Shown here: positions 12,385-31,442 of the stretch, piece after piece
How positions within the stretch are numbered: the stretch's first letter is position 1
How the letters are laid out: every line of letters begins with the position of its first letter
Source of the DNA: Methanothermobacter thermautotrophicus str. Delta H
GTDB lineage: Archaea; Methanobacteriota; Methanobacteria; Methanobacteriales; Methanothermobacteraceae
Reading direction: 5' to 3'
DNA: 32,000 bases
NCBI RefSeq assembly: GCF_000008645.1
Contig: NC_000916.1
Coordinates: forward strand, 30,001 to 62,000
Program-made: the position numbers and the translations under genes
Notes under the pieces: generated by a model
Seen by the model: the letters and a program-made list of their open reading frames with translations, nothing else
Told to the model about the DNA's origin: nothing
The model's database searches: none

Positions 12385-12642
12385 TCATGTCTTAAGGATT
12401 CTAATCGTAAGAATTGCGAGCATCATTAGCCCAAAAATTCTGATCGCCTCTTGATGGCGAATTATCCAATCTTCTTTTTTTCTGAAAAAATACAATAAAA
12501 CGAAAAGGAGCCCCACGACTAACCAGTCAGTCAACTCAACCTTCGGGCTGTTTAAATATAACAGTTCAAGGAAAAAGATTATGAAAGTAACCATAAAAAG
12601 TATATCAAATTTTCTTTCACCTTTTTCAGACCTTTCAATCAT
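12385..12642 (-). CDS. Small membrane ORF (putative immunity-like partner of cassette F)
   Basis: 85 aa with 2-3 hydrophobic helices. RBS GAGGGG lies in the 18-nt gap after the cassette F stop. Confidence 0.5.
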   Translation of the reverse strand: MIERSEKGERKFDILFMVTFIIFFLELLYLNSPKVELTDWLVVGLLFVLLYFFRKKEDWIIRHQEAIRIFGLMMLAILTIRILKT

Positions 12643-12660
12643 TACAACCCCTCTATTTAC

Positions 12661-14438: not shown

Positions 14439-15385
14439 CCTCCAGCCTCTCTCAACTTCTTTTCTAGGTAGTTTTTGAATCCTAGTATGCAGGCTTCTAT
14501 TGTCTCACGATTCTCATAGGCTAATAGGCTTCCAATAGCCATCCCAGTGCCTATTACAGTACCTCCATGTTTTATGGCGCCCACGACATTCCCATCCTTT
14601 AAAGCCTCCTTGAACAGATCCCATTCATCCATCATGAGTTTACCTAAATTATTTATAGCCCTTCCTATATCGTCGGGATCGCCACCAACACCACCACTGC
14701 TAATCACCCTTAGAGTATCTACGGCTTCTCTATACTCATTTATCGCTTGACTCCATTCGTCAGACTGTCTTGATAGTATTTCAAGATAGTTTTGTATTGG
14801 TTGTGTGTCTCCTGTTAGTAGTGTGTAGGCGATGAATGTTGGCAGACCAGCGGGTGAGAGTAACATCATGGCATCTTCGATGTATGGGAGCCACTCAGGA
14901 TGTTCGATGAGGATATAAGCGACTATTGCAACAACTATTCCTATGCCAGCTGTCGCCGGCGCTGACAAGGCTCCTGCTTCGAGGATGGCGACTTCAGCTC
15001 CTCCTTCGAAGCCGACGACTTCAGCTCCTGAAACACCAGCAAATCCAATGAACTTCCACAAACCGGTCTCATTCAGTAGTTCTTTTGCGAGGTTGGCTGC
15101 CCATTCTGTCTGCAGGTGGCTGAAACAATATGCCCCCATAACATTCTTAAAGATATTGACATCCCTCACTATCCCTGTTGCAGTGTCGATGATCAGGTAG
15201 TCATTATCATAGTTTATTATGGTGTAGTTCCCAGCTTTTGTAATATTTAGTTTTTCTCCGTTCAGGAGCCTGTATGCTATGCTTGTGATCGCAGCACCTT
15301 CCATGATATCCCCTATATTGTCGAGGCTTCCATTGTATGGGAATAGGCGTTGCATTGAACTCTGAGGGGTTTGATGTCCCGACAA
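14435..15385 (-). CDS. Type-2 C-terminal module: junction block fused to a different Gly/Ala-rich hydrophobic C-terminus (likely start at ATG 15304)
   Basis: AITSIAYRLLNGEKLNITKAGNYTIINYDNDYLIIDTATGIVRDVNIFKNVMGAYCFSHLQTEWA aligns with the junction block of the 837/840-aa proteins. The rest (..ATAGIGIVVAIVAYILIEHPEWLPYIED..GGTVIGTGMAIGSLLAY..NYLEKKLREAGG) is unrelated to them. The listed start is TTG. ATG 15304 has TAGGGGAT 5 nt upstream. Confidence 0.6.
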   Translation of the reverse strand: MSGHQTPQSSMQRLFPYNGSLDNIGDIMEGAAITSIAYRLLNGEKLNITKAGNYTIINYDNDYLIIDTATGIVRDVNIFKNVMGAYCFSHLQTEWAANLAKELLNETGLWKFIGFAGVSGAEVVGFEGGAEVAILEAGALSAPATAGIGIVVAIVAYILIEHPEWLPYIEDAMMLLSPAGLPTFIAYTLLTGDTQPIQNYLEILSRQSDEWSQAINEYREAVDTLRVISSGGVGGDPDDIGRAINNLGKLMMDEWDLFKEALKDGNVVGAIKHGGTVIGTGMAIGSLLAYENRETIEACILGFKNYLEKKLREAGG

Positions 15386-15401: not shown

Positions 15402-15677
15402 TTATACCCCTGGAGATGCAATTAAACCCACTATAAGGAGCATTACCATCATCCATCTTATTTCATACTCTTTTTCCTTCAACTCGTAGTAGAGCCAGCA
15501 TAAAAGGAGAAGAGTGAACAAGCCTAAAGGGGCTGCTATTAGGGACAAAACATCACAATGATACTTAAGCGCAAGAATACATAGGAACATAACTATGCAG
15601 ATAAGAGGATAAGCCCTCTTATACCAAGATTCATAATCCAATAAGATCCCCTCCACTTTAGATATATACTGCTTCAT
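15402..15677 (-). CDS. Small membrane ORF, family 1 (DYES..EIRWM), putative immunity-like partner of large protein A (probable TTG start at 15641)
   Basis: 2-3 TM helices. GGAGGGG at 15648-15654 and TTG at 15641 reproduce the RBS/TTG arrangement of paralogues 20180..20425 and 23298..23534. It lies 16 nt after the protein A stop. Confidence 0.6.
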   Translation of the reverse strand: MKQYISKVEGILLDYESWYKRAYPLICIVMFLCILALKYHCDVLSLIAAPLGLFTLLLLCWLYYELKEKEYEIRWMMVMLLIVGLIASPGV

Positions 15678-18171
15678 CCCACCTCAAACTACCATCAGGA
15701 TTCTTCGGTATTTCAATATAGTGTATACAATGATCCTCACCAACATAACATCTCAACTCATAACCATCGTACCAGGAACGATGATACGATATATACTTCC
15801 AATACTCTTTTGGAAGATAATAATCTCTAAAGCTCAATATTTTATCACCAAACCACATACAAAACCCAATTGACCCTAATATCGCCCCAGCACCTCCTTT
15901 TGACACGTATCCAAAAACAGTAAGTAAAATATCTATAATGTCTTTTGGAATGTATGTTTGGTGTTCTATGATGAATTTTTTGATATCGTCTGTGATGTTT
16001 TGGAGGCTTGTGTAGGCTATTGTTGTTGCATATGCTGCCATGTTGAGTCCTATAAGTCCCTGACCCACAAGAGCATAATTGAGGATATCAACGAAAGCCA
16101 TTGGACCTTCCAGGGCAATGTACATGGAGATTACAAGGCCAATATAGGCCTTCTTGATACTATCATCTAAACCTTCAAGGTTTACTGTGCCATTACCATC
16201 CAAGAGCGAATCTAACTTTTCAGAGAATATTATGGCTTGGCCAAGTTCCCGGGCCCATTCTGTTTGTTGGTGGTAGTAGCAGTATGCTCCCATGAAAGCA
16301 TAGATCATGTCCCTTACTATCCCTGTTGCATGGTCTATGATGAGGTATCTTCCCTGCCCGTCACTGATAAGCGTGTAATTCCCGCTTTCGAGGATGTTTA
16401 GTGACCCGCCGTTGAGGAGTGTTAGGCCTATTCCTGTTGTGGGCGCGCTTGTGGGGTCTGATCCTGGGAAGAGGGCCTCCATCACATAGTATTCTATTGG
16501 ATTTATAGCTGATGTTCTCGCATAATTGAATGCTTTAATGTTTTCGGGTGTGCCTTCTGCTTTCACGGCCATGTTGTGGTTGCATTCGAGGCTTATCCAT
16601 GTCCCTGGGCTGTGGTCTCCTGCTGAGACCATCACTGGCATGGTCCTGGTCCATGTTACATTATAGCGCGTGGCTGCTTCTTCTGCGATGAGATCGTGGA
16701 GGTATATTACTTCAAGGCCTGTTAGGAATGTTCCGTGGGCTGCCTTTAATGGTCCGGGCTCGTATGTCCTGTTTAGCCACTTTTGTAATGTCTGGTTTGT
16801 TATCTTCCCTGTGGCGAGGGTGTAGGTTATGATGGCGTCGTAGTTGCTAGCCTCCCAGATGAGAGTGTCGTTTATTATGATATTGGGTCCTGTTTCTCCT
16901 GGTGGGTGTATGTATTGGCCGTTTGTGTAGAGTAGGAGGAGTGTTCTTGTTGATTTGTTCCCTGGGAATGTTATATTGGCTATTGTCACCTTTTCCTCGC
17001 CGGGATACTCCACACTGACCTGTAAAGGGTCTATGCACTTGTTATAGTTTGTGAGTATGAATATCTTTTCTGCCTGGGTTAAATTGAAGTTGTTGAGATA
17101 TTCATTCACTTGAGGTTCTGCTCCGAGTTTTGTGTAAATTTCTATGAGTCTGTTCAGGCCAGCTATGACTTGCCAGACTATTTCTCTTTGACTCTGGCTG
17201 TTAGCCTGGTAGAATGGGTTAGTGACCTCGGCTAGTTTGTATGCTATGCCATCCTCCACAAGGAATATTGTTTCATTGAATAGGCCCGAAGATATAGCCC
17301 CTATACTAATCCATTTAACCGTGTCATTGAGCGGAATTTTAAATGTTAAATTTAGGGGCTTCCCAGAGGATGTTGCCGTGGAATTAACATGGACCGTTGC
17401 AAGCATAACCTCCAATGTAATAGTCTTCGTGTCTGTTATGCCATAGCCTTGGACTGTTAGGGTTACTTTGTAGGTTCCTGGTTTGTAGGCGTGTACTGGA
17501 TTCTTCTGGGTGCTTGTGCTTTGGTCTCCGAAGTCCCATTTGTAGTATTGTATTGTCCCTGTACTTTTATCCTGGAATTGGACATTATAGCCTTGTATTG
17601 TGTAGGTGTAGTCTGCCCTTGGCCTTACTATAATTCCACCCTTACCTGTAACATATTCTACTGTTACATAGTTTGGTAGTCTTCCTGTGCTGTTGTAGAA
17701 GTTTATTATCCTTGCATTGGCATATATTAGGCTTTCTGGGCGGACTTGTCCAATGGCTGTGCTGGCATAATTCGGCGACCTCCCATAGGATTCCATGAAA
17801 GCCTTAACATTCTTTGCCACCTGCAAGTATCCTGCTTTTTGGAGTGTTCCTGTTCCTGTTCCACTTGGACTGGGCGGGGAGGCCATACTATTGAATGACA
17901 AGCCAACTCTCCTACCCTGATCGAGGTTTATGATGGTTGAGGATGAGGCGTAGAGGTAGTCGTCTGCCGACACATTCTTACCGTTAATCACAACCTGTGA
18001 TGGTATTTTTTCATGTTGTGCAGTGTAGTTTCCGATCAGCTTTGAAACGTCACAAATCTCATCATAGGATAAACTCACAGCTGAAGAACTGCCCAAAAGA
18101 CAGAAAAAGGACAGGATCGCCAGAAAAAACAACAACCTCCTCACAGCCACCACCATAATATGATAACACAT
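15658..18171 (-). CDS. Large secreted protein A: signal peptide, 2 pseudomurein-binding-like repeats, PKD domain, unassigned ~300-aa domain, junction block, variable hydrophobic C-terminus with a conserved His/Cys end module (polymorphic-toxin-like)
   Basis: 837-aa ORF. IGNYTAQHEKIPSQVVINGKNVSADDYLYASSSTI and VKAFMESYGRSPNYASTAIGQVRPESLIYANARII resemble PMBR repeats. YKWDFGDQSTSTQKNPVHAYKPGTYKVTLTV is a classic PKD signature. Residues 23-640 are identical to protein B. The start may be ATG 18156 (MVVAVRRLL). Confidence 0.7.
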   Translation of the reverse strand: MCYHIMVVAVRRLLFFLAILSFFCLLGSSSAVSLSYDEICDVSKLIGNYTAQHEKIPSQVVINGKNVSADDYLYASSSTIINLDQGRRVGLSFNSMASPPSPSGTGTGTLQKAGYLQVAKNVKAFMESYGRSPNYASTAIGQVRPESLIYANARIINFYNSTGRLPNYVTVEYVTGKGGIIVRPRADYTYTIQGYNVQFQDKSTGTIQYYKWDFGDQSTSTQKNPVHAYKPGTYKVTLTVQGYGITDTKTITLEVMLATVHVNSTATSSGKPLNLTFKIPLNDTVKWISIGAISSGLFNETIFLVEDGIAYKLAEVTNPFYQANSQSQREIVWQVIAGLNRLIEIYTKLGAEPQVNEYLNNFNLTQAEKIFILTNYNKCIDPLQVSVEYPGEEKVTIANITFPGNKSTRTLLLLYTNGQYIHPPGETGPNIIINDTLIWEASNYDAIITYTLATGKITNQTLQKWLNRTYEPGPLKAAHGTFLTGLEVIYLHDLIAEEAATRYNVTWTRTMPVMVSAGDHSPGTWISLECNHNMAVKAEGTPENIKAFNYARTSAINPIEYYVMEALFPGSDPTSAPTTGIGLTLLNGGSLNILESGNYTLISDGQGRYLIIDHATGIVRDMIYAFMGAYCYYHQQTEWARELGQAIIFSEKLDSLLDGNGTVNLEGLDDSIKKAYIGLVISMYIALEGPMAFVDILNYALVGQGLIGLNMAAYATTIAYTSLQNITDDIKKFIIEHQTYIPKDIIDILLTVFGYVSKGGAGAILGSIGFCMWFGDKILSFRDYYLPKEYWKYISYHRSWYDGYELRCYVGEDHCIHYIEIPKNPDGSLRWDEAVYI
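16252..18105. repeat. Long direct repeat, copy 1 (partner 24753-26606, offset 8501), apparently 100% identical
   Basis: The encoded proteins are identical. Three pairs of alternative-frame ORFs are also identical with the same offset (16847/25348, 17222/25723, 17491/25992). The boundary lines were compared by eye. Confidence 0.85.
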
Positions 18172-18604: not shown

Positions 18605-18883
18605 TCAATGATATAGCCGAGAAAGGAGAAGTACACCTACTAGGAGCATTATAACAAAAAGTGTTTCGATCACACCTTTTTCCTCGCCTCTGAACACCTT
18701 CTTCGACAGAAAATAGATTAGCAAAAACATATTTCCCAGTAAAAGACACGTTAACAATATAATAGGTAGTTCAGGCCTAGTAGGCAGTAAAGCCAACTTA
18801 CTACCCGTAAACAGTAAAACCAACAAAATTGTAAAACACGATAACGACCCCAAAAACTGAAAAAGCTTAGATGTATGCTGCAT
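18605..18883 (-). CDS. Small membrane ORF, family 2 (putative immunity-like partner of cassette E1)
   Basis: 92 aa. It shares RPELPIILLTCLLLGNMFLLIYFLSKKVFRGEEKGV with 10384..10662. Its ATG is embedded in the cassette's last codons. Confidence 0.6.
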   Translation of the reverse strand: MQHTSKLFQFLGSLSCFTILLVLLFTGSKLALLPTRPELPIILLTCLLLGNMFLLIYFLSKKVFRGEEKGVIETLFVIMLLVGVLLLSRLYH

Positions 18884-19274
18884 CCTCCCACCTCAAACTA
18901 CCATCAGGATTCTTCGGTATTTCAATATAGTGTATACAATGATCCTCACCAACATAACTTCTCAACTCATAACCATAAATCCAGGTACGATGAATCGAAA
19001 TATACTTCCAATATTCTTGGGGAAGATAATGAGTCCGTATCCTTAAAATCAAATCACCTTCAGCCACTATCACACTTATAAAACCCAAAGGACCCATAAC
19101 AGCAGTGACACCGGCAACAGTTGCAATATCTAATATACCATGGAAAACATCCTCTAGAATGCATGTTTGGTGTTCTATGATGAATTTTTTGATATCGTCT
19201 GTGATGTTTAGGAGGCCTGTGTAGGCTATTATTGTTGCATATGCTGCCATGTTGAGTCCTATAAATCCCTCCAC
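18867..19274 (-). CDS. Orphan C-terminal cassette E1 (5'-truncated; no ATG, listed start is GTG inside ..LVEGFIG..)
   Basis: ..EGFIGLNMAAYATIIAYTGLLNITDDIKKFIIEHQTCILEDVFHGILDIATVAGVTAVMGPLGFISVIVAEGDLILRIRTHYLPQEYWKY..GEDHCIHYIEIPKNPDGSLRWEDAAYI. Homology to the full-length genes begins only at ~19295. Confidence 0.7.
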   Translation of the reverse strand: MEGFIGLNMAAYATIIAYTGLLNITDDIKKFIIEHQTCILEDVFHGILDIATVAGVTAVMGPLGFISVIVAEGDLILRIRTHYLPQEYWKYISIHRTWIYGYELRSYVGEDHCIHYIEIPKNPDGSLRWEDAAYI

Positions 19275-19660: not shown

Positions 19661-20164
19661 TCAGATATACACTGCTTCATCCCATCTTAAAGTACCATCT
19701 GGGTTCTTTGGGATTTCAATGTAGTGTATGCAATGGTCTTCGCCAACATAAATTTTAAGTTCATAACCATGCCGCCAAGTTCTATGGTAAGAAACATATT
19801 TCCAATATTCAGTTGGAAGATAATTCGTTCTTACATTCACAATTAAATCACCTTCTGCTAATAGTAGAGAAGCAATCGAAAAAATACCACTTGCCAAGGT
19901 GACACCTTCACTACTAAGCTCTTTTAAACTCCATATAAAAAGAATCCCATCTATAATGTCCCCTCCAATGCATGTTTGGTGTTCTATGATGAATTTTTTG
20001 ATATCGTCTGTGATGTTTAGGAGGCCTGTGTAGGCTATTATTGTTGCATATGCTGCCATGTTGAGTCCTATGAGGCTGGCCCTACATAATCGAAAAAGAG
20101 GGTTTAGGATGGAAAGGTACATGGAGGTTACAAAGCCCAATATAAGCCTTCTTAGTACTATCAT
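19661..20164 (-). CDS. Orphan C-terminal cassette D (5'-truncated; the first ~10 listed residues are an out-of-frame artefact)
   Basis: The core GGDIIDGILFIWSLKELSSEGVTLASGIFSIASLLLAEGDLIVNVRTNYLPTEYWKY is unique. The end module is conserved. DNA homology (..LDGNSTVNLEGLDDSTKKAYIG) starts at ~20200, overlapping the preceding ORF's 3' end. It has the same extra-T frameshift as E2. Confidence 0.7.
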   Translation of the reverse strand: MIVLRRLILGFVTSMYLSILNPLFRLCRASLIGLNMAAYATIIAYTGLLNITDDIKKFIIEHQTCIGGDIIDGILFIWSLKELSSEGVTLASGIFSIASLLLAEGDLIVNVRTNYLPTEYWKYVSYHRTWRHGYELKIYVGEDHCIHYIEIPKNPDGTLRWDEAVYI

Positions 20165-20464: not shown

Positions 20465-20554
20465 TTAGGGTTCGTTTGAGAATTTTAGCCCCATATAGTT
20501 GCCGCGGATCGTAAAATACGCCAAAAACTGAAAAAGCTTAGATGTATACTGCAT
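20465..20554 (-). pseudogene. Truncated family-2 membrane ORF remnant after cassette C
   Basis: MQYTSKLFQFL.. starts inside the last codons of cassette C exactly as in E1/E2, then diverges and stops after 29 codons. Confidence 0.45.
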
Positions 20555-21182
20555 CCTCCCACCTCAAACTACCATCAGGATTCTTCGGTATTTCAATATA
20601 GTGTATACAATGATCCTCACCAACATAACTTCTCAACTCATAACCATAAATCCAGGTACGATGAATCGAAATATACTTCCAATATTCTTGGGGAAGATAA
20701 TGATCTCTAAATGTAAGTATGCCATCACCTATCCGCATACACCATCCAATTGGTTGAAATATTTCACCACCATACCTTACTAACACATATGCCAAAACCT
20801 GGATCAAACAGTGAGCAGTATCTTCTGAGATGTATGTTTGGTGTTCTATGATGAATTTTTTGATATCGTCTGTGATGTTTAGGAGGCTTGTGTAGGCTAT
20901 TATTGTTGCATATGCTGCCATGTTGAGTCCTATAAATCCCTCCACAAGAGCATAATTGAGGATATCAACGAAAGCCATTGGACCTTCCAGGGCAATGTAC
21001 ATGGAGATTACAAGGCCAATATAAGCCTTCTTGATACTATCATCTAAACCTTCAAGGTTTACTGTGCCATTACCATCCAAGAGCGAATCTAACTTTTCAG
21101 ATATTATGGCTTGGCCAAGTTCCCGAGCCCATTCTGTCTGTTGGTGGTAGTAGCAGTATGCTCCCATGAAAGCATAGATCAT
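20538..21182 (-). CDS. Orphan C-terminal cassette C (homology extends 5' to ~21335; no N-terminal domains)
   Basis: The in-frame upstream extension reads TTGIGLTLLNGGSLNILESENYTLISDGQGRYLIIDHATGIVRD-MIYAFMG... The unique core is SEDTAHCLIQVLAYVLVRYGGEIFQPIGWCMRIGDGILTFRDHYLP. The end module is identical to that of E1/E2. Confidence 0.7.
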   Translation of the reverse strand: MIYAFMGAYCYYHQQTEWARELGQAIISEKLDSLLDGNGTVNLEGLDDSIKKAYIGLVISMYIALEGPMAFVDILNYALVEGFIGLNMAAYATIIAYTSLLNITDDIKKFIIEHQTYISEDTAHCLIQVLAYVLVRYGGEIFQPIGWCMRIGDGILTFRDHYLPQEYWKYISIHRTWIYGYELRSYVGEDHCIHYIEIPKNPDGSLRWEDAVYI

Positions 21183-21425: not shown

Positions 21426-22565
21426 TCATAGCATTTTAGTGCTTCTTTGTGTTTGCCGAGTTTTTGTAGTGTTTTTCCTTGCATGTACCATAGTGTTTTG
21501 TTTTGGGGGGTTTAGTTTGAGGGCTTTCTTGTAGCATTTCAGGGATTCCTCTGGTTTTTTGAGGTCTTCTAGGATTATGCCTTTCCATTTCCATGCATCG
21601 GCGAATTCGGGGTTTATTTCAAGGGCTTTTTGAAAGCATTCCAGCGCATCCTTATATTTTCCAAGTTCTTCGAGGACTAGTCCTTTGTTGTTCCATGTTT
21701 TGTCGTCTTCTGGATCTATTTCCAGGGCTTTTTCATAGCATTCTAGTGCCTCCTCATATCTCCCAAGTTCACTGAGGACTACTCCTTTGTTGTTCCATGC
21801 TTCTGCAAGTTTGGGGTTTATCTGTAATGCTTTTTCATAGCATTCTAGTGACTCATCATATCTCCCAAGTTCATTGAAAACTAGTCCTTTGTTGTTCCAA
21901 GCTTTATCATCTTGTGGATTTAATTGGAGAACTTTGTCATAACATTTTAATGCTTCTTCATATATCTTAAGGTTATGTAATGTTATTCCTTTAGTTCCCC
22001 AAGCTCTATAATTTTTTGGATTTAGCTCTATGGCTTTTTCGAAACATTTTAGTGCCTTTTTGTATTTTTTAAGGTAAATTAGAACGGAGCCTTTATTGTA
22101 CCATGCATCTGCAAGTTTGGGGTTTATCTGTAATGCTTTTTCATAGCATTCTAGTGCCTCATCATATCTCCCAAGTTCTTTGAGGACTAGTGCTTTATTG
22201 TTCCATGCTCCTGCATACTTTGGATTTATTTTTAGTGCTTTTTCATAGCATTCTAGTGCCTCATCATATCTCCCAAGTTCTTTGAGGACTAGTCCTTTGT
22301 TGTTCCATGCTTCTGCAAGTTTTGGATTGTTTTTGAGGATTTTTTCATAGCATTCTAAGGCTTTCTCTGGTCTTTTGAGTTTTAGTAGTGTTATTGCATT
22401 GTAGTGGAGGATTTCTGGGTTGTTTGGTCTTGCTTTGAGGGCTTTCCTGAATTCTTTGAGGGCTTCTTTGTATTTTCCCTGTTTTAGGCTTGATCGGCCC
22501 CCAGCAAGGTGCCATCCAGCCTTTCCCTCGGCTATCCAATCCTTTATTTTCTTAAGGGGGTTCAT
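21426..22565 (-). CDS. TPR repeat protein, frameshifted near its 3' end (last TPR units continue in ORF 21302..21484)
   Basis: 379 aa of TPR units. At the G6 run 21505-21510 the frame slips (..KLNPPKQNTMVH.. instead of ..KLNPQ.KTLWYMQGKTLQKLGKH..). ATGA overlap with 22562..23164. Confidence 0.75.
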   Translation of the reverse strand: MNPLKKIKDWIAEGKAGWHLAGGRSSLKQGKYKEALKEFRKALKARPNNPEILHYNAITLLKLKRPEKALECYEKILKNNPKLAEAWNNKGLVLKELGRYDEALECYEKALKINPKYAGAWNNKALVLKELGRYDEALECYEKALQINPKLADAWYNKGSVLIYLKKYKKALKCFEKAIELNPKNYRAWGTKGITLHNLKIYEEALKCYDKVLQLNPQDDKAWNNKGLVFNELGRYDESLECYEKALQINPKLAEAWNNKGVVLSELGRYEEALECYEKALEIDPEDDKTWNNKGLVLEELGKYKDALECFQKALEINPEFADAWKWKGIILEDLKKPEESLKCYKKALKLNPPKQNTMVHARKNTTKTRQTQRSTKML

Positions 22566-23164
22566 CCTCCAGCCTCTCTCAACTTCTTTTCTAGGTAGTT
22601 TTTGAATCCTAGTATGCAGGCTTCTATTGCTTCACGATTCTCATAGGCCAATAGGCTTCCAATAGCCATCCCAGTGCCTATTATAGTGCCTCCATGTTTT
22701 ATGGCGCCCACAACATCCCCATCCTTTAAAGCCTCCTTGAACAGATCCCATTCATCCATCATGAGTTTACCTAAATTATTTATAGCCCTTCCTATATCAT
22801 CAGGGTCTGGGGATGATGGGACATTCACTTGAGGAAGCTCCCCCCAATTTGTAATTCTTTTCTTCCATTCCTTGTCAGGTATTATTTTTGCTAATTCTTG
22901 TATTGGTTGTGTGTCTCCTGTTAGTAGTGTGTAGGTGATGAATGTTGGCAAACCACCAGGTGAAAGTAGCATGCTCATCATCATAGCATCTTCGATGTAT
23001 GGTAGCCATTCAGGATGCTCCATGATAATAATTAGAGCCAGGGTAATAACCAAGCCTAAACCTAGTGTTTCTGGGGCTGAAAGCACACCCAATTCAAGTG
23101 CAGCTGCTTCGGCTGTTGAAACACCAGCAACACCAATAAATTTCCACCAACCACTCCAATTCAA
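22562..23164 (-). CDS. Type-2 C-terminal module, 5'-truncated and frameshifted copy
   Basis: Homologous, with several substitutions and small indels, to the C-terminal ~200 aa of 14435..15385 (..IEHPEWLPYIEDAMM..NYLEKKLREAGG). Upstream, MGAYY(fs)HQQTELAKKLGNEILNWSGWWKF shows a 1-nt deletion, and homology ends at ~23225. Confidence 0.6.
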   Translation of the reverse strand: MNWSGWWKFIGVAGVSTAEAAALELGVLSAPETLGLGLVITLALIIIMEHPEWLPYIEDAMMMSMLLSPGGLPTFITYTLLTGDTQPIQELAKIIPDKEWKKRITNWGELPQVNVPSSPDPDDIGRAINNLGKLMMDEWDLFKEALKDGDVVGAIKHGGTIIGTGMAIGSLLAYENREAIEACILGFKNYLEKKLREAGG

Positions 23165-24149: not shown

Positions 24150-26672
24150 TTAAATATATACTGCTTCATCCCACCGTAGAGTACCATCAGGGTCCTTCGG
24201 TATTTCAATATAGTGTATACAATGATCCTCACCAACATAAGCCCTAAGCTCATAACCATGAGCCCATGTACGATGATATGCAATATATTTCCAATATTCC
24301 TCTGGGAGATAATGATCCCTAAAATCGAGTATCCCATTGCCTATAGCCATACACAAACCAACTGGCTGAAGTATTACCCCACCACCAGATTTCGATAATA
24401 CATATATTACTGCTGGAAGCATATATTCAACAAAATCATTTGAAATGTATGTTTGATGTTCCACGATAAATTCTTTGATGCTGCCTGTAATGTTGTTGAG
24501 TTTGGAGTTTATGTAGGCTATTGTTGTTGCGTATGCTGCTATGTTAACTCCTATGAGGCCCTGACCCACCAAGCCATAACTGATGATTTCAACAAAGGTC
24601 ATGGGGTTATGTAGGGCGAGTCGCATTGAAACTATAAGACCCATGAAGGCTTTTCCCACACTATCCCTTAAACCTTCAAGATTTACTGTGCCATTACCAT
24701 CCAAGAGTGACTTTAACCTTTCAGAGGACATTATGGTTCGGCCAAGTTCTTGGGCCCATTCTGTTTGTTGGTGGTAGTAGCAGTATGCTCCCATGAAAGC
24801 ATAGATCATGTCCCTTACTATCCCTGTTGCATGGTCTATGATGAGGTATCTTCCCTGCCCGTCACTGATAAGCGTGTAATTCCCGCTTTCGAGGATGTTT
24901 AGTGACCCGCCGTTGAGGAGTGTTAGGCCTATTCCTGTTGTGGGCGCGCTTGTGGGGTCTGATCCTGGGAAGAGGGCCTCCATCACATAGTATTCTATTG
25001 GATTTATAGCTGATGTTCTCGCATAATTGAATGCTTTAATGTTTTCGGGTGTGCCTTCTGCTTTCACGGCCATGTTGTGGTTGCATTCGAGGCTTATCCA
25101 TGTCCCTGGGCTGTGGTCTCCTGCTGAGACCATCACTGGCATGGTCCTGGTCCATGTTACATTATAGCGCGTGGCTGCTTCTTCTGCGATGAGATCGTGG
25201 AGGTATATTACTTCAAGGCCTGTTAGGAATGTTCCGTGGGCTGCCTTTAATGGTCCGGGCTCGTATGTCCTGTTTAGCCACTTTTGTAATGTCTGGTTTG
25301 TTATCTTCCCTGTGGCGAGGGTGTAGGTTATGATGGCGTCGTAGTTGCTAGCCTCCCAGATGAGAGTGTCGTTTATTATGATATTGGGTCCTGTTTCTCC
25401 TGGTGGGTGTATGTATTGGCCGTTTGTGTAGAGTAGGAGGAGTGTTCTTGTTGATTTGTTCCCTGGGAATGTTATATTGGCTATTGTCACCTTTTCCTCG
25501 CCGGGATACTCCACACTGACCTGTAAAGGGTCTATGCACTTGTTATAGTTTGTGAGTATGAATATCTTTTCTGCCTGGGTTAAATTGAAGTTGTTGAGAT
25601 ATTCATTCACTTGAGGTTCTGCTCCGAGTTTTGTGTAAATTTCTATGAGTCTGTTCAGGCCAGCTATGACTTGCCAGACTATTTCTCTTTGACTCTGGCT
25701 GTTAGCCTGGTAGAATGGGTTAGTGACCTCGGCTAGTTTGTATGCTATGCCATCCTCCACAAGGAATATTGTTTCATTGAATAGGCCCGAAGATATAGCC
25801 CCTATACTAATCCATTTAACCGTGTCATTGAGCGGAATTTTAAATGTTAAATTTAGGGGCTTCCCAGAGGATGTTGCCGTGGAATTAACATGGACCGTTG
25901 CAAGCATAACCTCCAATGTAATAGTCTTCGTGTCTGTTATGCCATAGCCTTGGACTGTTAGGGTTACTTTGTAGGTTCCTGGTTTGTAGGCGTGTACTGG
26001 ATTCTTCTGGGTGCTTGTGCTTTGGTCTCCGAAGTCCCATTTGTAGTATTGTATTGTCCCTGTACTTTTATCCTGGAATTGGACATTATAGCCTTGTATT
26101 GTGTAGGTGTAGTCTGCCCTTGGCCTTACTATAATTCCACCCTTACCTGTAACATATTCTACTGTTACATAGTTTGGTAGTCTTCCTGTGCTGTTGTAGA
26201 AGTTTATTATCCTTGCATTGGCATATATTAGGCTTTCTGGGCGGACTTGTCCAATGGCTGTGCTGGCATAATTCGGCGACCTCCCATAGGATTCCATGAA
26301 AGCCTTAACATTCTTTGCCACCTGCAAGTATCCTGCTTTTTGGAGTGTTCCTGTTCCTGTTCCACTTGGACTGGGCGGGGAGGCCATACTATTGAATGAC
26401 AAGCCAACTCTCCTACCCTGATCGAGGTTTATGATGGTTGAGGATGAGGCGTAGAGGTAGTCGTCTGCCGACACATTCTTACCGTTAATCACAACCTGTG
26501 ATGGTATTTTTTCATGTTGTGCAGTGTAGTTTCCGATCAGCTTTGAAACGTCACAAATCTCATCATAGGATAAACTCACAGCTGAAGAACTGCCCAAAAG
26601 ACAGAAACAAGAGAGGATTGCCAGAAGAAACAATAACCTCCTCACAGCCACCACCATAATATGATAACACAT
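24150..26672 (-). CDS. Large secreted protein B: same N-terminal 640 aa as protein A, different C-terminal core (polymorphic-toxin-like)
   Basis: 840-aa ORF. From ..TEWA it diverges: QELGRTIMSSERLKSLL..SNDFVEYMLPAVIYVLSKSGGGVILQPVGLCMAIGNGILDFRDHYLPEEYWKYIAYHRTWAHGYELRAYVGEDHCIHYIEIPKDPDGTLRWDEAVYI. Confidence 0.7.
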   Translation of the reverse strand: MCYHIMVVAVRRLLFLLAILSCFCLLGSSSAVSLSYDEICDVSKLIGNYTAQHEKIPSQVVINGKNVSADDYLYASSSTIINLDQGRRVGLSFNSMASPPSPSGTGTGTLQKAGYLQVAKNVKAFMESYGRSPNYASTAIGQVRPESLIYANARIINFYNSTGRLPNYVTVEYVTGKGGIIVRPRADYTYTIQGYNVQFQDKSTGTIQYYKWDFGDQSTSTQKNPVHAYKPGTYKVTLTVQGYGITDTKTITLEVMLATVHVNSTATSSGKPLNLTFKIPLNDTVKWISIGAISSGLFNETIFLVEDGIAYKLAEVTNPFYQANSQSQREIVWQVIAGLNRLIEIYTKLGAEPQVNEYLNNFNLTQAEKIFILTNYNKCIDPLQVSVEYPGEEKVTIANITFPGNKSTRTLLLLYTNGQYIHPPGETGPNIIINDTLIWEASNYDAIITYTLATGKITNQTLQKWLNRTYEPGPLKAAHGTFLTGLEVIYLHDLIAEEAATRYNVTWTRTMPVMVSAGDHSPGTWISLECNHNMAVKAEGTPENIKAFNYARTSAINPIEYYVMEALFPGSDPTSAPTTGIGLTLLNGGSLNILESGNYTLISDGQGRYLIIDHATGIVRDMIYAFMGAYCYYHQQTEWAQELGRTIMSSERLKSLLDGNGTVNLEGLRDSVGKAFMGLIVSMRLALHNPMTFVEIISYGLVGQGLIGVNIAAYATTIAYINSKLNNITGSIKEFIVEHQTYISNDFVEYMLPAVIYVLSKSGGGVILQPVGLCMAIGNGILDFRDHYLPEEYWKYIAYHRTWAHGYELRAYVGEDHCIHYIEIPKDPDGTLRWDEAVYI
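24753..26606. repeat. Long direct repeat, copy 2 (partner 16252-18105)
   Basis: See copy 1. Confidence 0.85.
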
Positions 26673-27203: not shown

Positions 27204-27599
27204 TTATTTCCTTCTTTGTTGATCAAATGTAAGTAAAATTAACGCCGCTATAGCCACTACAGTCATAATAGTTCTTAGTGATAATGGCTGTTGGGTTAAT
27301 ACTACTATATAAAAAAATAAAGCCAAAAATATTGTGTAAAACAAGAGTTTTAATCTTCTTCCAGGACTATTATAAATACTTTGAAGTCTGATGTATCCAT
27401 AGAAAGTTAGTATCATTAACATGAACATTAACAATCTTAACTCTAAATATTGGAAAAAATTAAATTCTATGTATAAAAAAATGCCAAAAAATACCACGCA
27501 CAAAAGTAATGTTATTCTTTTTTCATTTTTTTCACTTATCTCAAACATACTTCTTCCACTCCCTAAAATTAAAATAATAATTAGGTATATGTCCACCAT
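27204..27599 (-). CDS. Multi-TM ORF, family 3 (putative immunity-like partner of cassette K2; likely start at ATG 27548)
   Basis: 4 hydrophobic helices. LTFYGYIRL and ALFFYIVVLTQQPLSLRT parallel LSLYGYRT and ALFLYIILVLQPALNTL of 28390..28758. Confidence 0.5.
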   Translation of the reverse strand: MVDIYLIIILILGSGRSMFEISEKNEKRITLLLCVVFFGIFLYIEFNFFQYLELRLLMFMLMILTFYGYIRLQSIYNSPGRRLKLLFYTIFLALFFYIVVLTQQPLSLRTIMTVVAIAALILLTFDQQRRK

Positions 27600-27808
27600 C
27601 CCTCATTAACATGCGCTGTTCCTATAGTACCTAAGTAAGCTGTCCCTAATAAACCAAAAAACTTACCCACTGGATGATCTGTGTAACCTAGCGTCACACA
27701 AACCCAGGCACACCCATAGTAGACTCTCCACCAGTTAAACTCCTTACCATGCCATTTACCCTTCTTCTTCAACCGGTACTTCCAGTTTTTACCAATGATC
27801 TTTTGCAT
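27581..27808 (-). CDS. Leader+cargo cassette K2 (5'-truncated; frame opens only at ..KVLSREEMQKIIGK)
   Basis: MQKIIGK-NWKYRLKKKGKWHGKEFNWWRVYYGCAWVCVTLGYTDHPVGKFFGLLGTAYLGTIGTAHVNEGWWTYT. ~95 nt appear identical by eye to K1 (27729-27816 vs 28928-29015). Confidence 0.55.
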   Translation of the reverse strand: MQKIIGKNWKYRLKKKGKWHGKEFNWWRVYYGCAWVCVTLGYTDHPVGKFFGLLGTAYLGTIGTAHVNEGWWTYT

Positions 27809-27998
27809 TTCCTCTCTGCTTAGGACTTTTTATCTGCTATGTTCGCGATTTGATCTCTATCCGTGCTTATATGGTCTTTTGCCTTTGACGTTCTTGCATC
27901 TCCCCTAATTTTACTGGTCGTTGATTCTATTAGCTTTTGGATCCCCCTCTTTTGTGCTTGTCAATGTAAAGGTCCGATAGGAAATGCTGGTTGGAGGG

Positions 27999-28211
27999 TC
28001 AAGATGCTTTTGGTTTAATCTTCGCGAATAATCCCAGTGTCATCAATATTAGTGTTATGAAGAAGGATCCGAGGCAAAGGCATATTAGCCAGAAGGGGCT
28101 GAGGCCACCTAATAATGTCCCCGCGGGGCCTTTGACCACAAACTCCACCAGATTCATAATACATAATGTTAGGGCCACCACTATCATATTAACATTTTCT
28201 TCCCCTTTCAT
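27999..28211 (-). CDS. Small 2-TM ORF (uncertain)
   Basis: Hydrophobic 62-70-aa ORF on the island's coding strand. It is preferred over the overlapping plus-strand ORF 27991..28365, which has no recognisable features. Confidence 0.3.
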   Translation of the reverse strand: MKGEENVNMIVVALTLCIMNLVEFVVKGPAGTLLGGLSPFWLICLCLGSFFITLILMTLGLFAKIKPKAS

Positions 28212-28389
28212 GCTGAAATGCGCTATAAAATATCCGGTCAGGACAAAATGTCATCCTAATTCACCTTTGAATAGCAAAGTATTCTCCTCTCATAATGTGG
28301 ACTATAAAATATGCCAACCATATCTCCACTCAAACTGTGGGAATAATGTACAGTTATCCCAGTAGATTCCCAATCCTCAATGGGGGGTC

Positions 28390-28758
28390 CTAAGTCTCTT
28401 TGTTTTTAGTGGCGGTTCTTAGGAAAGTTTTCAGTTGAGGCGCGTTGATTAGGAAGAGTGTTGTCAGTAATCCGATGGCTACATACCAGTTTAAGGTGTT
28501 TAATGCTGGTTGAAGTACCAGTATGATGTAGAGGAAGAGTGCTGTGAGGACCGTCTCAACAAAAACTTTAAGCTGCCATTTATTGTGTCGATTTGAAGTT
28601 CTATAACCATAGAGGGAGAGCATGGCAAGCATCATCAGAAAAACCATTAACTCCGAGGCTCCATGGACATCAAACACATAAAGGAATGAAATTACCATAA
28701 AAACCGTGAATATGCCTAAAAAATATCTCAAATCTCTATTCCTCCTTTCATCAGACAT
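28390..28758 (-). CDS. Multi-TM ORF, family 3 (putative immunity-like partner of cassette K1)
   Basis: 122 aa, 4 hydrophobic helices. RBS AGGAGG lies in the 36-nt gap after the K1 stop. Confidence 0.55.
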   Translation of the reverse strand: MSDERRNRDLRYFLGIFTVFMVISFLYVFDVHGASELMVFLMMLAMLSLYGYRTSNRHNKWQLKVFVETVLTALFLYIILVLQPALNTLNWYVAIGLLTTLFLINAPQLKTFLRTATKNKET

Positions 28759-28794
28759 TATAAAAACCTCCTGAATAAGAAAAATGGTGGTACT

Positions 28795-29067
28795 TTAATA
28801 CCACCACCCACAATGTGTACGATAATAACGCCCTTCTGAGGGTTCAAACATGAGATAAAGGGCGCCAGCTTTGCCCCATGGGCCACCGTACACTGTCCCC
28901 GCAACAGCAGCCCAGTAATAAACTTTCCACCAGTTAAACTCCTTACCATGCCATTTACCCTTCTTCTTCAACCGGTACTTCCAGTTTTTACCAATGATCT
29001 TTTGCATTTCCTCTGTGCTGAGGGGTTCTATTCGCTGTGTTCTCCGCGGTTTTGTTGTAACATCCAT
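28795..29067 (-). CDS. Leader+cargo cassette K1 (has its own ATG): double-glycine-like leader followed by a cationic Trp/Gly-rich core
   Basis: MDVTTKPRRTQRIEPLSTEEMQKIIGK | NWKYRLKKKGKWHGKEFNWWKVYYWAAVAGTVYGGPWGKAGALYLMFEPSEGRYYRTHCGWWY. The junction DNA cctcagcacagaggaaatgca is shared with the C39 gene. Confidence 0.55.
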   Translation of the reverse strand: MDVTTKPRRTQRIEPLSTEEMQKIIGKNWKYRLKKKGKWHGKEFNWWKVYYWAAVAGTVYGGPWGKAGALYLMFEPSEGRYYRTHCGWWY

Positions 29068-29127
29068 GTTTATTCATCTTAGATGTTTAAGATCTGGGCT
29101 TCCATTTTGTTTTTTGTTCGCTGTATT

Positions 29128-29583
29128 TTAATAATGCTTTTGATGGCTTTTCTCAGTCTTTGGATCAGTTACTGGTCTTTTGATGATTAGCACTGTAAAG
29201 ACGATATATGCGGCGGCGGTTACTGTAAGCGCGACGCATGTGGCCCCCACAACATTTTTGTTGATGGGTGTTTTTGTGAGGATGGCATTTGTTAAACCTA
29301 TGAGGTTGAATCCCAGTGTGAACAGCGCGCTGATCAGTAGTGTCCTGGTAAGGCAATGATCATAGCATCCACCAAGACCTTTGATAACCCTATTCAAACC
29401 GGTCATGTACAGTATAACCATGACATCTAAAATGAGGATATAAGCTGCTGAATTAATAGCGTTTCCTGAGACAATATAGAAGAATGGGGCCAGCTCATCC
29501 CCCTGCATCCACCCTGATAAAACTACAGCCGCGCTTATGGCAAAAACCGCCAGCAACGTTAATATAAACATTTTATCTTTCAT
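29128..29583 (-). CDS. 4-TM ORF directly downstream of the C39-cargo gene (putative immunity-like)
   Basis: 151 aa. RBS GAGGAG lies 8 nt upstream of the ATG, in a 36-nt gap after the upstream stop. Confidence 0.55.
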   Translation of the reverse strand: MKDKMFILTLLAVFAISAAVVLSGWMQGDELAPFFYIVSGNAINSAAYILILDVMVILYMTGLNRVIKGLGGCYDHCLTRTLLISALFTLGFNLIGLTNAILTKTPINKNVVGATCVALTVTAAAYIVFTVLIIKRPVTDPKTEKSHQKHY

Positions 29584-29619
29584 AATTTTTCTCCTCTTTT
29601 AAAATAATTGGTTGGATGG

Positions 29620-30189
29620 TTAGTATTCTACATAATGTATACAGTGATCACGCCCCAAGTATGCTTTCACTCTTTTATTTGGCGGGTGATATGCACAGTA
29701 TTTCCAGTACTTTCGCGGCACATACTTATCCCTGACAGTGACTATTATATTACCCAAACCATATAATGTAATAGGAAGCCACCACAACTTGCCTCTAATG
29801 TTCTGCATTTCCTCTGTGCTGAGGATTTTAGCTGAGTCTGTGCCTTGTATTGGCTGATCTGTTGAGATATTCATTGGATTCATTTCATGTTCTGTCTGGT
29901 TGTCTGATGCCGTTCTGTTTTCCATTGCTTCTGTGTTATCACTGCTCTTGATTATGAGGGCGTATCCTGTGTAGATTTCTTGGAATTCTTCCAGTGACAT
30001 TTCTATGTTTCCCATGGTGGGGTCTGCTAGTTTAACGGTTTCATTGTTGACTTCCCTGATGAGGGTGTAGTGTCCCACACCATCACTCATTGTATATGCG
30101 ATCATGTTCTCGTGGAGTTCTGTGATGTTCAGTTTCATGCCTGTCATGTTAACGCCCTTGGCCTTTGCCGCCTCCAGGAGGCCCTGCAT
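29620..30189 (-). CDS. C39-type cysteine peptidase, C-terminal fragment (His/Asp half) + linker + leader-like motif + cargo with the YWKY..DHCIHY end module
   Basis: The frame is open upstream to ~30290 (GINTTEDELADLAGTTEEGTT-MQGLLEAAKAKGVNMTG..). VGHYTLIREVNNETVKLADPTMGNIEMSLEEFQEIYTGYALII follows the C39 His/Asp layout. Next comes ..ILSTEEMQNIRGK-LWWLPITLYGLGNIIVTVRDKYVPRKYWKYCAYHPPNKRVKAYLGRDHCIHYVEY. Confidence 0.75.
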   Translation of the reverse strand: MQGLLEAAKAKGVNMTGMKLNITELHENMIAYTMSDGVGHYTLIREVNNETVKLADPTMGNIEMSLEEFQEIYTGYALIIKSSDNTEAMENRTASDNQTEHEMNPMNISTDQPIQGTDSAKILSTEEMQNIRGKLWWLPITLYGLGNIIVTVRDKYVPRKYWKYCAYHPPNKRVKAYLGRDHCIHYVEY

Positions 30190-30245
30190 TGTTGTACCCT
30201 CTTCTGTGGTGCCGGCGAGGTCTGCGAGTTCATCCTCGGTTGTGT

Positions 30246-30524
30246 TTATTCCAAGGTTTGGAGTAGTGTGGCGAGTGCTGCCGGTCCGCAGGTGTAGTTC
30301 CTGGTCTGCAGGACCACGCCGGTGTTATCTGCTGTGATGTTATCGTCTATAGTGAACTCTGCTGGATCCGTGAAGTTCTCTTCCAAGTTATCTGCTGTGG
30401 ATAAGTCCATGGGATTCGTGGAGTTACTGCTGTTATCCCGTGGGGTTTGTGCGGCCGCAGCAGCGTTAAAAGATACTGCGAGTGTTAAGAGGATCAGCAA
30501 ACCCAAAAGACACGACTTTCTCAT
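30246..30524 (-). CDS. C39-type cysteine peptidase, N-terminal fragment (signal peptide + Gln/Cys half)
   Basis: MRKSCLLGLLILLTLAVSFNAAAAA is a signal peptide. VLQTRNYTCGPAALATLLQTL is the Q..CG.A.L catalytic-Cys motif. It stops at ..QTLE*, where one more G would give ..QTLGINTTEDEL. Confidence 0.75.
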   Translation of the reverse strand: MRKSCLLGLLILLTLAVSFNAAAAAQTPRDNSSNSTNPMDLSTADNLEENFTDPAEFTIDDNITADNTGVVLQTRNYTCGPAALATLLQTLE

Positions 30525-31442
30525 CCACTATTCACCACATATCAGGTTGATAATAAATCTATAAGAAAAACTCATATATATATTACGGTGCTATGTTAAT
30601 GTATTAATCACATAAAAGGAGGCCTTTAAACATCACTCAGCTCGCCTCCGAGGTAATAGTAGCAAATAAGGAAAGATGGAGGGGGAAACAGGAGATTTCA
30701 ATGAATTATTGGATGCTTAACACTATTAAAGAATCCATTTGCATGATGCTGTATTTAAGTTGGTATGACCTCCAAAATCAGATATGCCCATTACAAGTGT
30801 GGTGACGATTGGCTGCTTTAGCGTTCTTCACGATATTGATGGAGGTTGCCATGAAAAATGGATATGATAGTCAGTACACACACCGAAATGTCGAGTAACC
30901 AGGATCTCACCTCCAGGACACCATCCAGTATTGTTCTCATCATTATGAAGATGACGGCTATAATGCCTGGGGATATTTCAAGTTTATGGGATGATTCATA
31001 GAATTACATATACTGCAGCAATTATGCAAGAGTAGCCATAAATATGGTGAATGATTGGGGCTTCTTATTTTTCATTGTCATCATCTTTAGTAGAGTTGAG
31101 GATTATTTTCCCCAGTATCCATCATATATCTCTGATACCTTTTTTATGAGGTAAGAACCTGTGAGCAGGCCTCCTGCAGTGTTTAAATGTCATTCCTGCC
31201 TTTAAGAGTGTTATACAAGGTTCCGATGCCACTGATAATCTCCATGCAACCCTCTCTGATTTTGCCACAGTCTGGTTTGGGATTTCTGTCTACTTTATAT
31301 GTGCTTCCATCCATGCACGTATATGGGGTATCCTTTCCCGTCCAATTTATATGTGACTTCATACTTGTAGAATGTTATTACTCTATTTCCATGTCGTTCG
31401 CTCTATTTTCTGATAAGGCGTTTTTTGATTATCTTGTAGCCT

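Follow-up and report, generated by a model that had tools for sequence, protein, structure and literature searches.

A predicted Sec-exported C39 peptidase fused to a leader-like motif and exchangeable cargos in Methanothermobacter: a probable polymorphic peptide-toxin/immunity system

The closest described relatives of the locus reported here are the peptidase-containing ATP-binding cassette (ABC) transporters of the PCAT and ABC-transporter maturation and secretion (AMS) type, such as ComA, PCAT1 and LahT, together with their double-glycine leader substrates and the class II bacteriocin loci. Our locus occupies positions 27204–30524 of a 32,000-nucleotide (nt) stretch of the Methanothermobacter thermautotrophicus str. 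Delta H genome (NC_000916.1, positions 30,001–62,000; hereafter the window), and comprises a head gene, which encodes a C39 peptidase carrying a predicted Sec signal peptide and fused to a leader-like motif and a C-terminal cargo, and two further motif-plus-cargo units (K1 and K2), each of the three being accompanied by an open reading frame (ORF) for a small membrane protein. With the PCAT/AMS proteins the head-gene peptidase shares the PF03412 family, the catalytic Q/C/H/D residues and the fold; with double-glycine leaders the motif shares the register L(−12), E(−8), L/M(−7), I(−4) and G(−2); and with class II bacteriocin loci the region shares small cationic peptides next to membrane immunity-like genes. 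In contrast to the PCAT systems, however, (i) the C39 domain in the window has a Sec signal, lacks transmembrane and ATPase domains, and is predicted to act extracellularly; (ii) its presumed substrate is fused in cis, C-terminal to the peptidase, rather than being a separate protein with an N-terminal leader; (iii) position −1, which is G, A or S in PCAT substrates, is K (or T, Q or R) in this family; and (iv) no exporter is present among the window proteins scanned or the best 150 members of the family.

A second set of parallels is provided by the polymorphic toxins (CdiA-CT/CdiI, Rhs; Zhang et al. 2012, PMC3482391), which likewise combine a constant N-terminal trafficking and processing part with a hypervariable C-terminus, a conserved junction motif, a cognate gene directly downstream and arrays of 5'-truncated orphans, and in which cargo modules also occur on different scaffolds and in beta-helix filament versions. 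Judged by its organization, the locus has the structural features that define a polymorphic toxin system, its downstream genes being putative immunity genes. It differs from the known ones in that the putative releasing peptidase is a C39 enzyme with a double-glycine-like site, most C39-family cargos are peptides rather than enzymes, and the hosts are pseudomurein-walled archaea and bacteria of the Candidate Phyla Radiation (CPR); the survey cited above mentions C39 solely as a toxin domain and finds classical polymorphic toxins to be rare among archaea (Zhang et al. 2012, PMC3482391).

Two further precedents are FapD, of the Pseudomonas functional amyloid system, and FilB, both of which have a signal peptide and a C39 domain acting outside the cytoplasm. 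In archaea, a C39 peptidase gene located beside several duplicated GG-leader genes has been read as a bacteriocin-like or quorum-sensing locus (Makarova, Wolf, Koonin 2019, PMC6393860, Fig. 2E); there the leader-bearing proteins are separate, and the text describes neither a cis fusion, nor a Sec signal on the peptidase, nor orphan and immunity cassettes. A 2026 preprint on archaeal bacteriocins makes no mention of a C39–leader–cargo system, and the methanogen 'C39-like' glycosidase of another 2026 paper is a different protein, linked to pseudomurein-binding repeats (PMBRs).

From the evidence presented below, we consider it about 65% probable that the locus is a Sec-exported polymorphic peptide-toxin/immunity system in which an extracytoplasmic C39 domain serves as the releasing peptidase.

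The head gene, its peptidase domain and its leader-like motif

All elements of the C39 locus described here lie on the minus strand, and coordinates are positions in the window. The head gene consists of ORF 30246–30524 (92 residues, from MRKSCLLGLLILLTLAVSFNAAAAAQ to NYTCGPAALATLLQTLE and a stop) and, in a second frame, ORF 29620–30189, which contains NLGINTTEDELADLAGTTEEGTTMQGLLEAAKAKG and ends with a stop at 29620. When the frames are bridged, they encode a 301-residue protein comprising, in order, a signal peptide, a C39 domain, a low-complexity linker, the motif LSTEEMQNIRGK and a 55-residue tail, LWWLPITLYGLGNIIVTV-RDKYVPRKYWKYCAYHPPNKRVKAYLGRDHCIHYVEY. The initial annotation had proposed this layout, including the hydrophobic helix and YWKY..DHCIHY end of the tail and a following ORF with four predicted membrane segments, and every element is present; the gap between the head gene and that ORF (partner ORF 0) is 36 nt.

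30573–30584, minus: TATA-like box TAATATATATAT, a candidate archaeal promoter identified by eye, about 50 nt 5' of the head-gene ATG
30532–30536, minus: probable head-gene ribosome-binding site GGTGA, identified from sequence, 7 nt 5' of the ATG at 30524
30450–30524, minus: predicted Sec-type signal peptide MRKSCLLGLLILLTLAVSFNAAAAA/Q, with n-, h- and c-regions and an AxA site; helix at residues 3–18 in the AlphaFold2 (AF2) model
30255–30260, minus: frameshift site CAAACC, lacking one A relative to CAAAACC; the upstream reading frame ends with the TAA at 30246–30248
29938–30317, minus: Peptidase_C39 domain (bridged residues 70–196), split by the frameshift; PF03412 match, AF2 and Foldseek
29824–29937, minus: N/T/S/Q/D/E-rich low-complexity linker, residues 197–234
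29788–29823, minus: leader-like motif LSTEEMQNIRGK, residues 235–246, in double-glycine-leader register with K replacing the last G
29623–29787, minus: cargo 1, 55 residues, net charge +6, a hydrophobic helix followed by the R..Y.P..YWKY...G.DHCIHY.E module
29128–29583, minus: partner ORF 0, 151 residues, four hydrophobic segments, strong ribosome-binding site AGAGGAGA; candidate immunity protein for cargo 1

The bridged protein matched PF03412 (Peptidase_C39) over residues 70–196, corresponding to profile positions 4–132 of 133 and hence nearly the full domain, with E=6.1e-34 and 117.2 bits (Pfam cut-off 22), as the initial annotation had anticipated. The intact alleles (protein P0001 and locus L061; relatives are cited by working numbers of this form) carry the same domain. 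The four catalytic residues Q73, C79, H152 and D168 are invariant in all 22 aligned homologues. In AF2 models, the predicted local distance difference test score (pLDDT) of the C39 domain is about 90 (90–95 across two family members), and the best Foldseek matches of this domain are the peptidase domains of PCAT1, ComA and LahT (E=2e-10 to 6e-9), with a TM-score of 0.86 normalized to the target and a root-mean-square deviation of 1.6 Å against ComA (5XE8); the pseudomurein endoisopeptidase PeiR (8Z4H) ranks below these, at E=6e-6. The head-gene peptidase belongs to family C39.

The protein does not qualify as a PCAT exporter. NCBIfam PCAT models match it only with their first ~136–142 positions, at 54–65 bits against cut-offs of 524–853, and scans of two sets of 10 window proteins (20 in all) detected no ABC-transporter domain, in line with the earlier claim that the window holds no transporter. 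That a Sec signal on a C39 peptidase departs from the norm was only partly borne out: the arrangement is unusual, but FapD and FilB, which exist as curated NCBIfam models, are precedents. Their models match the window protein far below their cut-offs (FilB, NF050078: residues 10–199, 41 versus 475 bits; FapD: residues 70–203, 29 versus 330 bits), and include neither the leader motif nor the cargo. A hydrophobic N-terminus is present in 62 of 90 full-length-looking family members.

The motif between linker and cargo has the family consensus L-[ST]-x-E-E-M-x-x-I-[KR]-G-K. In the 22 aligned homologues, conservation is complete or at least 90% at L235, E238/E239, M240, I243 and G245, and the spacing of double-glycine leaders is present, with I or V at −4 and a register that agrees with the alignment to TIGR01847 (bacteriocin_sig). 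Mean pairwise identity is 65% for the C39 domain, 26% for the linker, 68% for the 12-residue motif and 20% for the cargo, so that the motif appears as a conservation island between linker and cargo. TIGR01847 matches six of ten family leaders, and K1, at positions 2–14 of 15 (once 1–14, twice 3–14) with 12.3–14.4 bits, all below the cut-off of 15.7; the alignments stop at position 14 because K replaces the last G. The window head gene's own leader gave no match. Across the wider family, the conserved G is followed by K, T, Q, R, A, E or N. Despite its likeness to a double-glycine leader, the motif formally fails that definition.

In the AF2 model of the bridged protein, the linker has pLDDT values below 50, whereas the block of residues 231–240 with the motif reaches 83; here EEMQN forms a short helix and R-G a two-residue bridge. 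A Methanothermus fervidus protein with a different tail (P0024) shows the same pattern (motif pLDDT 90, linker below 50, bridge at R/K-G). These models are consistent with docking of the motif in the C39 active site, and the high confidence at the motif beside a disordered linker in two family members leads us to infer that the head protein may process itself. Two metagenomic relatives (P0053 and P0054) have two leader-like motifs in tandem before the tail, about 9–12 residues apart, e.g., LTTEEMEIIKGQ-QLSASANMQ-LTAEEMQTIRGK, which suggests double processing sites.

Cargo exchange, partner genes and the wider family

Downstream of partner ORF 0, the window contains two additional leader-and-cargo units, each with a membrane-protein ORF, as the initial annotation had described.

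28795–29067, minus: K1, an ATG, 15 residues, LSTEEMQKIIGK (28987–29022) and a 63-residue cargo (net charge +8, 29% W/Y/F)
28390–28758, minus: partner ORF 1, 122 residues, four hydrophobic segments (by eye), ribosome-binding site CAGGAGGT
27999–28211, minus: 70-residue ORF located between K2 and partner ORF 1; two hydrophobic segments
27708–27824, minus: 117-nt direct repeat, 92% identical to 28907–29023, spanning the leader and the first 21 cargo codons of K2/K1
27581–27829, minus: K2, a stop codon, then KV-LSREEMQKIIGK (27788–27823) and a 68-residue cargo (net charge +6, 24% W/Y/F)
27204–27599, minus: partner ORF 2, 131 residues from the first ATG; the likely true start, MFEISEK at 27548, gives 114 residues

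K1 reads MDVTTKPRRTQRIEP-LSTEEMQKIIGK followed by its 63-residue cargo, and has neither a signal peptide nor a recognizable ribosome-binding site; its sequence matches P0041, whose annotation is that of a multispecies Methanothermobacter hypothetical protein, at 100% identity. K2 is in frame from 27829 to its stop at 27581, and is considered an orphan since no start codon precedes its leader motif. In their present form, K1 (lacking a signal peptide) and K2 (lacking a start codon) are not exportable. P0042, which is the counterpart of K1 in M. tenebrarum, retains the first 12 residues and the complete cargo, but its leader region is out of frame, SAQRKCKRSLVKTGVS standing in place of LSTEEMQKIIGKNWKYRL, which implies two compensating indels and is as expected of an unexpressed orphan.

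The junction DNA, previously described as common to the head gene and K1, is in fact found in all three places: the 21-mer CCTCAGCACAGAGGAAATGCA occurs three times in the window with at most two mismatches, against an expected 0.00 (100 shuffles). Partner ORFs 1 and 2 are 38.6% identical over 83 residues (E=5e-7) and their cargos, K1 and K2, are homologous too, while partner ORF 0 is unrelated to both, just as cargo 1 is unrelated to the K1 and K2 cargos. Neither Pfam nor NCBIfam yielded a significant family for K1, K2 or the partner ORFs, and Rfam and tandem-repeat scans of the locus region returned nothing. Gene calls in each of the six syntenic genomes (L056–L061) include the 70-residue ORF, which has no family match.

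The proposal that the cargos are exchangeable cassettes is well supported by comparison of near-identical proteins. P0014 and P0015 are 98% identical up to the GK and unrelated (noise level) after it, and P0002 and P0008, 97% identical before the GK, are likewise unrelated beyond it; in both cases divergence begins at the residue directly following the GK, so that the sequence beyond the junction does differ between homologous loci. The initial annotation had named non-conserved catalytic residues and a lack of variation after the junction as results that would refute its proposal, and neither was observed. Cargo families number at least 10, and the cargo type found in K2 is fused to a C39 domain elsewhere: NWKYR...GWWTYT cargos occupy the head position in L008, P0012 and P0015, and those of the window and L002 are orphans. 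Conversely, YWKY/DHCIHY cargos occupy the head position in L001, L002 and the window and are orphans in L007 and L008, and the main tail families in general occur in both positions.

Three loci (L002, L007 and L008) repeat the layout of the window, a head gene being followed by one to three further motif-plus-tail units, and each tail in them is succeeded by a membrane-protein ORF within ~90 nt. The orphans of L002, L004, L007, L008 and L022 keep the 3' end of C39, the linker and the motif, and have no signal peptide or catalytic Cys; such downstream units are thus 5'-truncated orphans. Over 3 kb, L001 and the window are 99.4% identical, but in L001 precisely the stretch separating the 117-nt repeats is missing and there is one hybrid cassette, in which the 5' end of K1 is joined to the body of K2; the repeat is a recombination substrate. 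Taken together, the comparisons show a family that, to judge from its sequences, diversifies by recombination at leader-coding DNA, with displaced modules kept as orphans.

The partner genes vary together with the cargos. When 25 tail/partner pairs were clustered, they formed 10 tail families and 7 partner families; pairs from the same tail family shared a partner family in 42 of 42 comparisons, as opposed to 8 of 258 for pairs from different tail families, although the count overstates independence because several of the pairs come from closely related genomes. Homologues of partner ORF 0 lie 3' of every YWKY-type cargo in L001, L002, L007, L008 and L061, and homologues of partner ORF 2, beginning MFVISEK or MFVISKN, lie 3' of NWKYR-type cargos in L002 and L008.

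To place the locus in a wider context, we used a word-indexed search, which yielded 40 relatives, and a profile search over 1.84 billion cluster representatives, which yielded 119 clusters at E<=1e-30. The layout is common to more than 100 protein clusters, which come from Methanobacteriales and from some CPR bacteria. Proteins of Methanothermobacter, Methanothermus and Methanobacterium have a signal peptide, C39, an N/T/S/Q-rich linker, the motif and a tail; in Methanobacterium, the C39–motif–tail unit also terminates beta-helix (NosD/Beta_helix) surface proteins of 900 to ~2100 residues; and metagenome-assembled genomes of CPR bacteria (Uhrbacteria, Microgenomates, Nomurabacteria) encode a signal peptide, C39, an ...E-L-x-x-[MVI]-x-G-K motif and tails of 110–700 residues. 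More distant matches are either PCAT exporters of the ordinary type, from Bacilli and Tenericutes, or C39 proteins that lack a tail. Among the best 150 family members there is no true PCAT-like protein, the lone flag for a PCAT layout being a spurious Cys-motif match in the 2250-residue P0102, whose C39 domain lies at residues 1939–2078. A classical PCAT locus with its transporter encoded elsewhere was rejected for the family, given the conserved signal peptide, this result and the fact that true PCATs are encoded by the more distant Bacilli/Tenericutes loci.

Ten representative tails have net charges of +3 to +9, and in eight of them W, Y and F make up 20–32% of residues (8% and 12% in the tails of P0017 and P0034, which have hydrophobic stretches); such cationic, aromatic-rich compositions are typical of membrane-active peptides. 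Two larger tails (L015 9959–11152 and P0100) match the transglutaminase-like cysteine peptidase domain Transglut_core (PF01841) with 47.6 and 30.3 bits, above the gathering cut-off of 23, so the family would also deliver enzymes, possibly wall-cleaving ones. Known polymorphic-toxin effectors include domains of the Transglut_core class, to which the pseudomurein endoisopeptidases are related. Finally, L011 encodes, at ~12200–12747 and 2 kb 3' of a complete C39 gene, a protein with a signal peptide, a linker, the leader LTIDEMKNIKGK and a 53-residue tail that has no C39 domain of its own; it looks like a substrate for cleavage in trans, and points to such cleavage taking place outside the cell.

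The frameshift allele and a second array in the window

A 1-nt indel at 30255–30260 (CTCCAAACCTTGG) separates the two frames of the head gene, leaving the signal peptide and C79 on one fragment and H152 and the remainder on the other. The initial annotation advised resequencing of 30240–30265. A sequencing error is ruled out: the identical allele is present in six other assemblies (L006 and L056–L060; at least seven in all), including the complete Methanothermobacter genomes AP018336, CP064337 and CP194219 and two metagenome contigs, so no resequencing is needed. The frameshift is a genuine allele fixed in the lineage. An intact gene, which the initial annotation had advised seeking in other Methanobacteriales, was found in L001 and L061 (CP104550), where the allele CTCCAGAAACTTGG (CAGAAAC) leaves uninterrupted genes of 297 and 301 residues. 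The existence of these two intact copies identifies the window head gene as a pseudogene in this strain. Programmed frameshifting is unlikely, because the site, C-CAA-ACC, is not a slippery heptamer and its A-run is only 3 nt long. The L006 copy has several frameshifts; paralogues with an intact peptidase domain occur elsewhere (P0010 and P0007).

The deletion is shared with L006 even though the flanking DNA of that locus is only 94% identical to the window, and the 5' part of the window head gene resembles the P0006/L006 allele while its 3' part resembles that of L001, suggesting that the gene is a mosaic that inherited the lesion by recombination. The partner ORFs, with their strong ribosome-binding sites, may still confer immunity in this strain.

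The window contains what appears to be a second polymorphic array. Two secreted proteins of 837 and 840 residues (15658–18171 and 24150–26672, minus strand), each with three PMBRs and a PKD domain, are near-identical for ~650 residues and diverge in the last ~190, and start-truncated copies of their C-terminal region lie downstream, at 20538–21182, 19661–20164, 18867–19274 and 10646–11134. L001 has five tandem copies of the equivalent PMBR orphan, at a spacing of 865 bp. A homologue search with a 214-residue orphan from the PMBR array returned only 11 small Methanothermobacter matches, which are uninformative about other scaffolds. Cargo 1 aligns with the extreme C-terminus of the two PMBR-PKD proteins and of their orphan fragments, with G, I, R, Y.P..YWKY, H and Y.G.DHCIHY.E invariant; the same end module therefore occurs on two different scaffolds. 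By BLASTP, partner ORF 0 has no similarity to the membrane ORF that follows the 840-residue gene, which carries the same cargo module.

Within the PMBR-protein arrays are also encoded two paralogous tetratricopeptide-repeat proteins of ~380–400 residues (13227–14438 and 21426–22565, minus strand), preceded by overlapping ORFs of an unknown family (14435–15385 and 22562–23164); these proteins could have immunity or accessory roles in the PMBR system. In addition, two 92-residue membrane ORFs (10384–10662 and 18605–18883, minus strand), 76% identical to each other, overlap the 3' end of a PMBR orphan by ~17 nt and are candidate partner genes of these orphans.

Proposed pathway, alternatives and implications

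In strains with an intact allele, we propose that the N-terminal signal peptide exports the pre-protein via Sec. Outside the membrane, the C39 domain would bind the amphipathic leader-like motif (L-x3-E-M-x2-I-x-G-K), tethered ~40 residues downstream of it by the flexible linker, and would cut at or beside the G-K bond, either in cis or between molecules. The cut would free a cationic, Trp/Tyr-rich peptide of 30–80 residues or, in some relatives, a transglutaminase-like enzyme; the freed cargo would attack neighbouring cells, and the small membrane protein encoded directly downstream would protect the producer. The downstream leader-and-cargo units would be displaced or stored orphan toxin modules whose immunity genes keep good ribosome-binding sites, and recombination at the conserved leader-coding DNA would swap cargos into the expressed gene. 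In this strain, the 1-nt deletion would disable the system at the export and recognition steps, so that the locus, its peptidase gene being split, would be in an 'immunity-only' or decaying state.

We lean slightly toward the broader proposal that Methanobacteriales and some CPR bacteria, two groups without an outer membrane, possess a transporter-independent bacteriocin pathway. Its C39 peptidase would have been relocated to the exterior and, following a Sec signal or a long beta-helix filament, been joined to a leader motif of its own and to a set of peptide and enzyme toxins that is reshuffled by recombination. No polymorphic peptide-toxin/immunity system of methanogens would precede it, and it would bring a new class of releasing peptidase whose specificity has moved from G-G to G-K/T/Q.

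Several observations weigh against a toxin/immunity system. Position −1 is K, with T, Q, R, A, E or N as further residues among relatives, and not G, and because canonical C39 peptidases need a small residue there, cleavage at the exact G-K bond is uncertain; the leader motifs score under the TIGR01847 cut-off; and the proposed docking is read solely from pLDDT and secondary structure. Some of the cargo–partner pairs, as noted above, are not independent. Some cargos resemble plain C-terminal membrane anchors, consisting of a hydrophobic helix and a basic tail (P0034, L007 5930), and cargo 1 itself begins with a hydrophobic helix. With a pseudogene at its head and a K1 that has no export signal, the copy in the window may have no role other than the expression of membrane proteins. 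Cleavage and its site, secretion, toxicity and immunity are predictions from sequence. Finally, while no description of a Sec-exported, cis-fused C39–leader–cargo protein with orphan arrays was found in the literature, an archaeal polymorphic-toxin survey (mBio 2019) lay outside the coverage of that search.

The alternative that survives best, though we regard it as unlikely, takes the anchor-like cargos at face value. The tail would be a C-terminal anchor, and C39 would cut at G-K to shed an N-terminal passenger (the protease itself or a large beta-helix adhesin) or to move it, in a sortase-like reaction, to pseudomurein, the membrane ORFs being unrelated or accessory. The helix-plus-basic-tail ends, which resemble sorting signals and are seen also in the L011 C39 protein, would fit this scheme, as would the hydrophobic start of cargo 1 and the position of the C39 unit at the end of giant Methanobacterium beta-helix surface proteins. 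Most cargos, however, are cationic aromatic peptides of 50–80 residues without a transmembrane segment, and some are transglutaminase-like; moreover, anchors need neither hypervariability, nor orphan copies, nor a strictly covarying downstream gene.

A somewhat lower probability is assigned to signalling, in which the released peptides would be pheromones of the ComC/BlpC kind and the small membrane proteins would sense or process them. Double-glycine leaders are used by quorum-sensing peptides as well, and weak, sub-threshold matches to BlpC were obtained alongside those to class IIb bacteriocin models. Both functions were left open for the archaeal C39 locus by Makarova et al. 2019 (PMC6393860). 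The cassettes nevertheless contain no histidine kinase or response regulator, according to the domain scans of window proteins, and the partners are proteins of 115–190 residues without a known domain, while cargos of 50–80 residues, their positive charge, the enzymatic tails and the orphan arrays are typical of toxins rather than pheromones.

Equally improbable, in our estimation, is that the C39 domain is itself the effector, a secreted toxin or cell-wall (pseudomurein) peptidase akin to PeiR or Tox-PL-C39, for which the motif in cis would be an uncleaved, inhibitory pseudo-substrate. K at position −1 might indeed block cleavage, C39-like toxin domains have been described (Zhang et al. 2012, PMC3482391), and PeiR (8Z4H) and papain-like contact-dependent inhibition toxins are among the Foldseek matches (E=1e-7 to 6e-6); but in sequence and fold the domain is closest to the leader-cleaving PCAT, ComA and LahT domains, a constant peptidase followed by a variable part has the polarity of a releasing peptidase and not of a toxin, and the partner ORFs covary with the cargo rather than with C39.

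Least probable of all is that the window holds decaying debris with no present role, since the features that suggest it (a frameshift fixed in at least seven assemblies, the several frameshifts of the L006 copy, a K2 without a start codon and the out-of-frame leader region of P0042) stand against intact alleles in L001 (99.4% identity) and L061, partner ORFs that are intact, have strong ribosome-binding sites and are conserved across genera, and a family-wide conservation of catalytic residues and leader motif that indicates purifying selection.

For annotation, these results account for dozens of 'hypothetical' small ORFs beside 'C39 family peptidase' genes, and the split gene of M. thermautotrophicus-type genomes is to be treated as a real pseudogene. 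To our knowledge, very little is known of how methanogens compete. If the polymorphic toxin/immunity reading is true, the double-glycine leader/C39 pair would work without an ABC exporter, extracellularly, in cis and with a residue other than glycine at position −1; the family would be a source of candidate narrow-spectrum anti-methanogen peptides and of a self-releasing secretion tag for archaeal expression; and Methanothermobacter and Methanobacterium would hold a large, recombining arsenal of peptides and matching immunity proteins.

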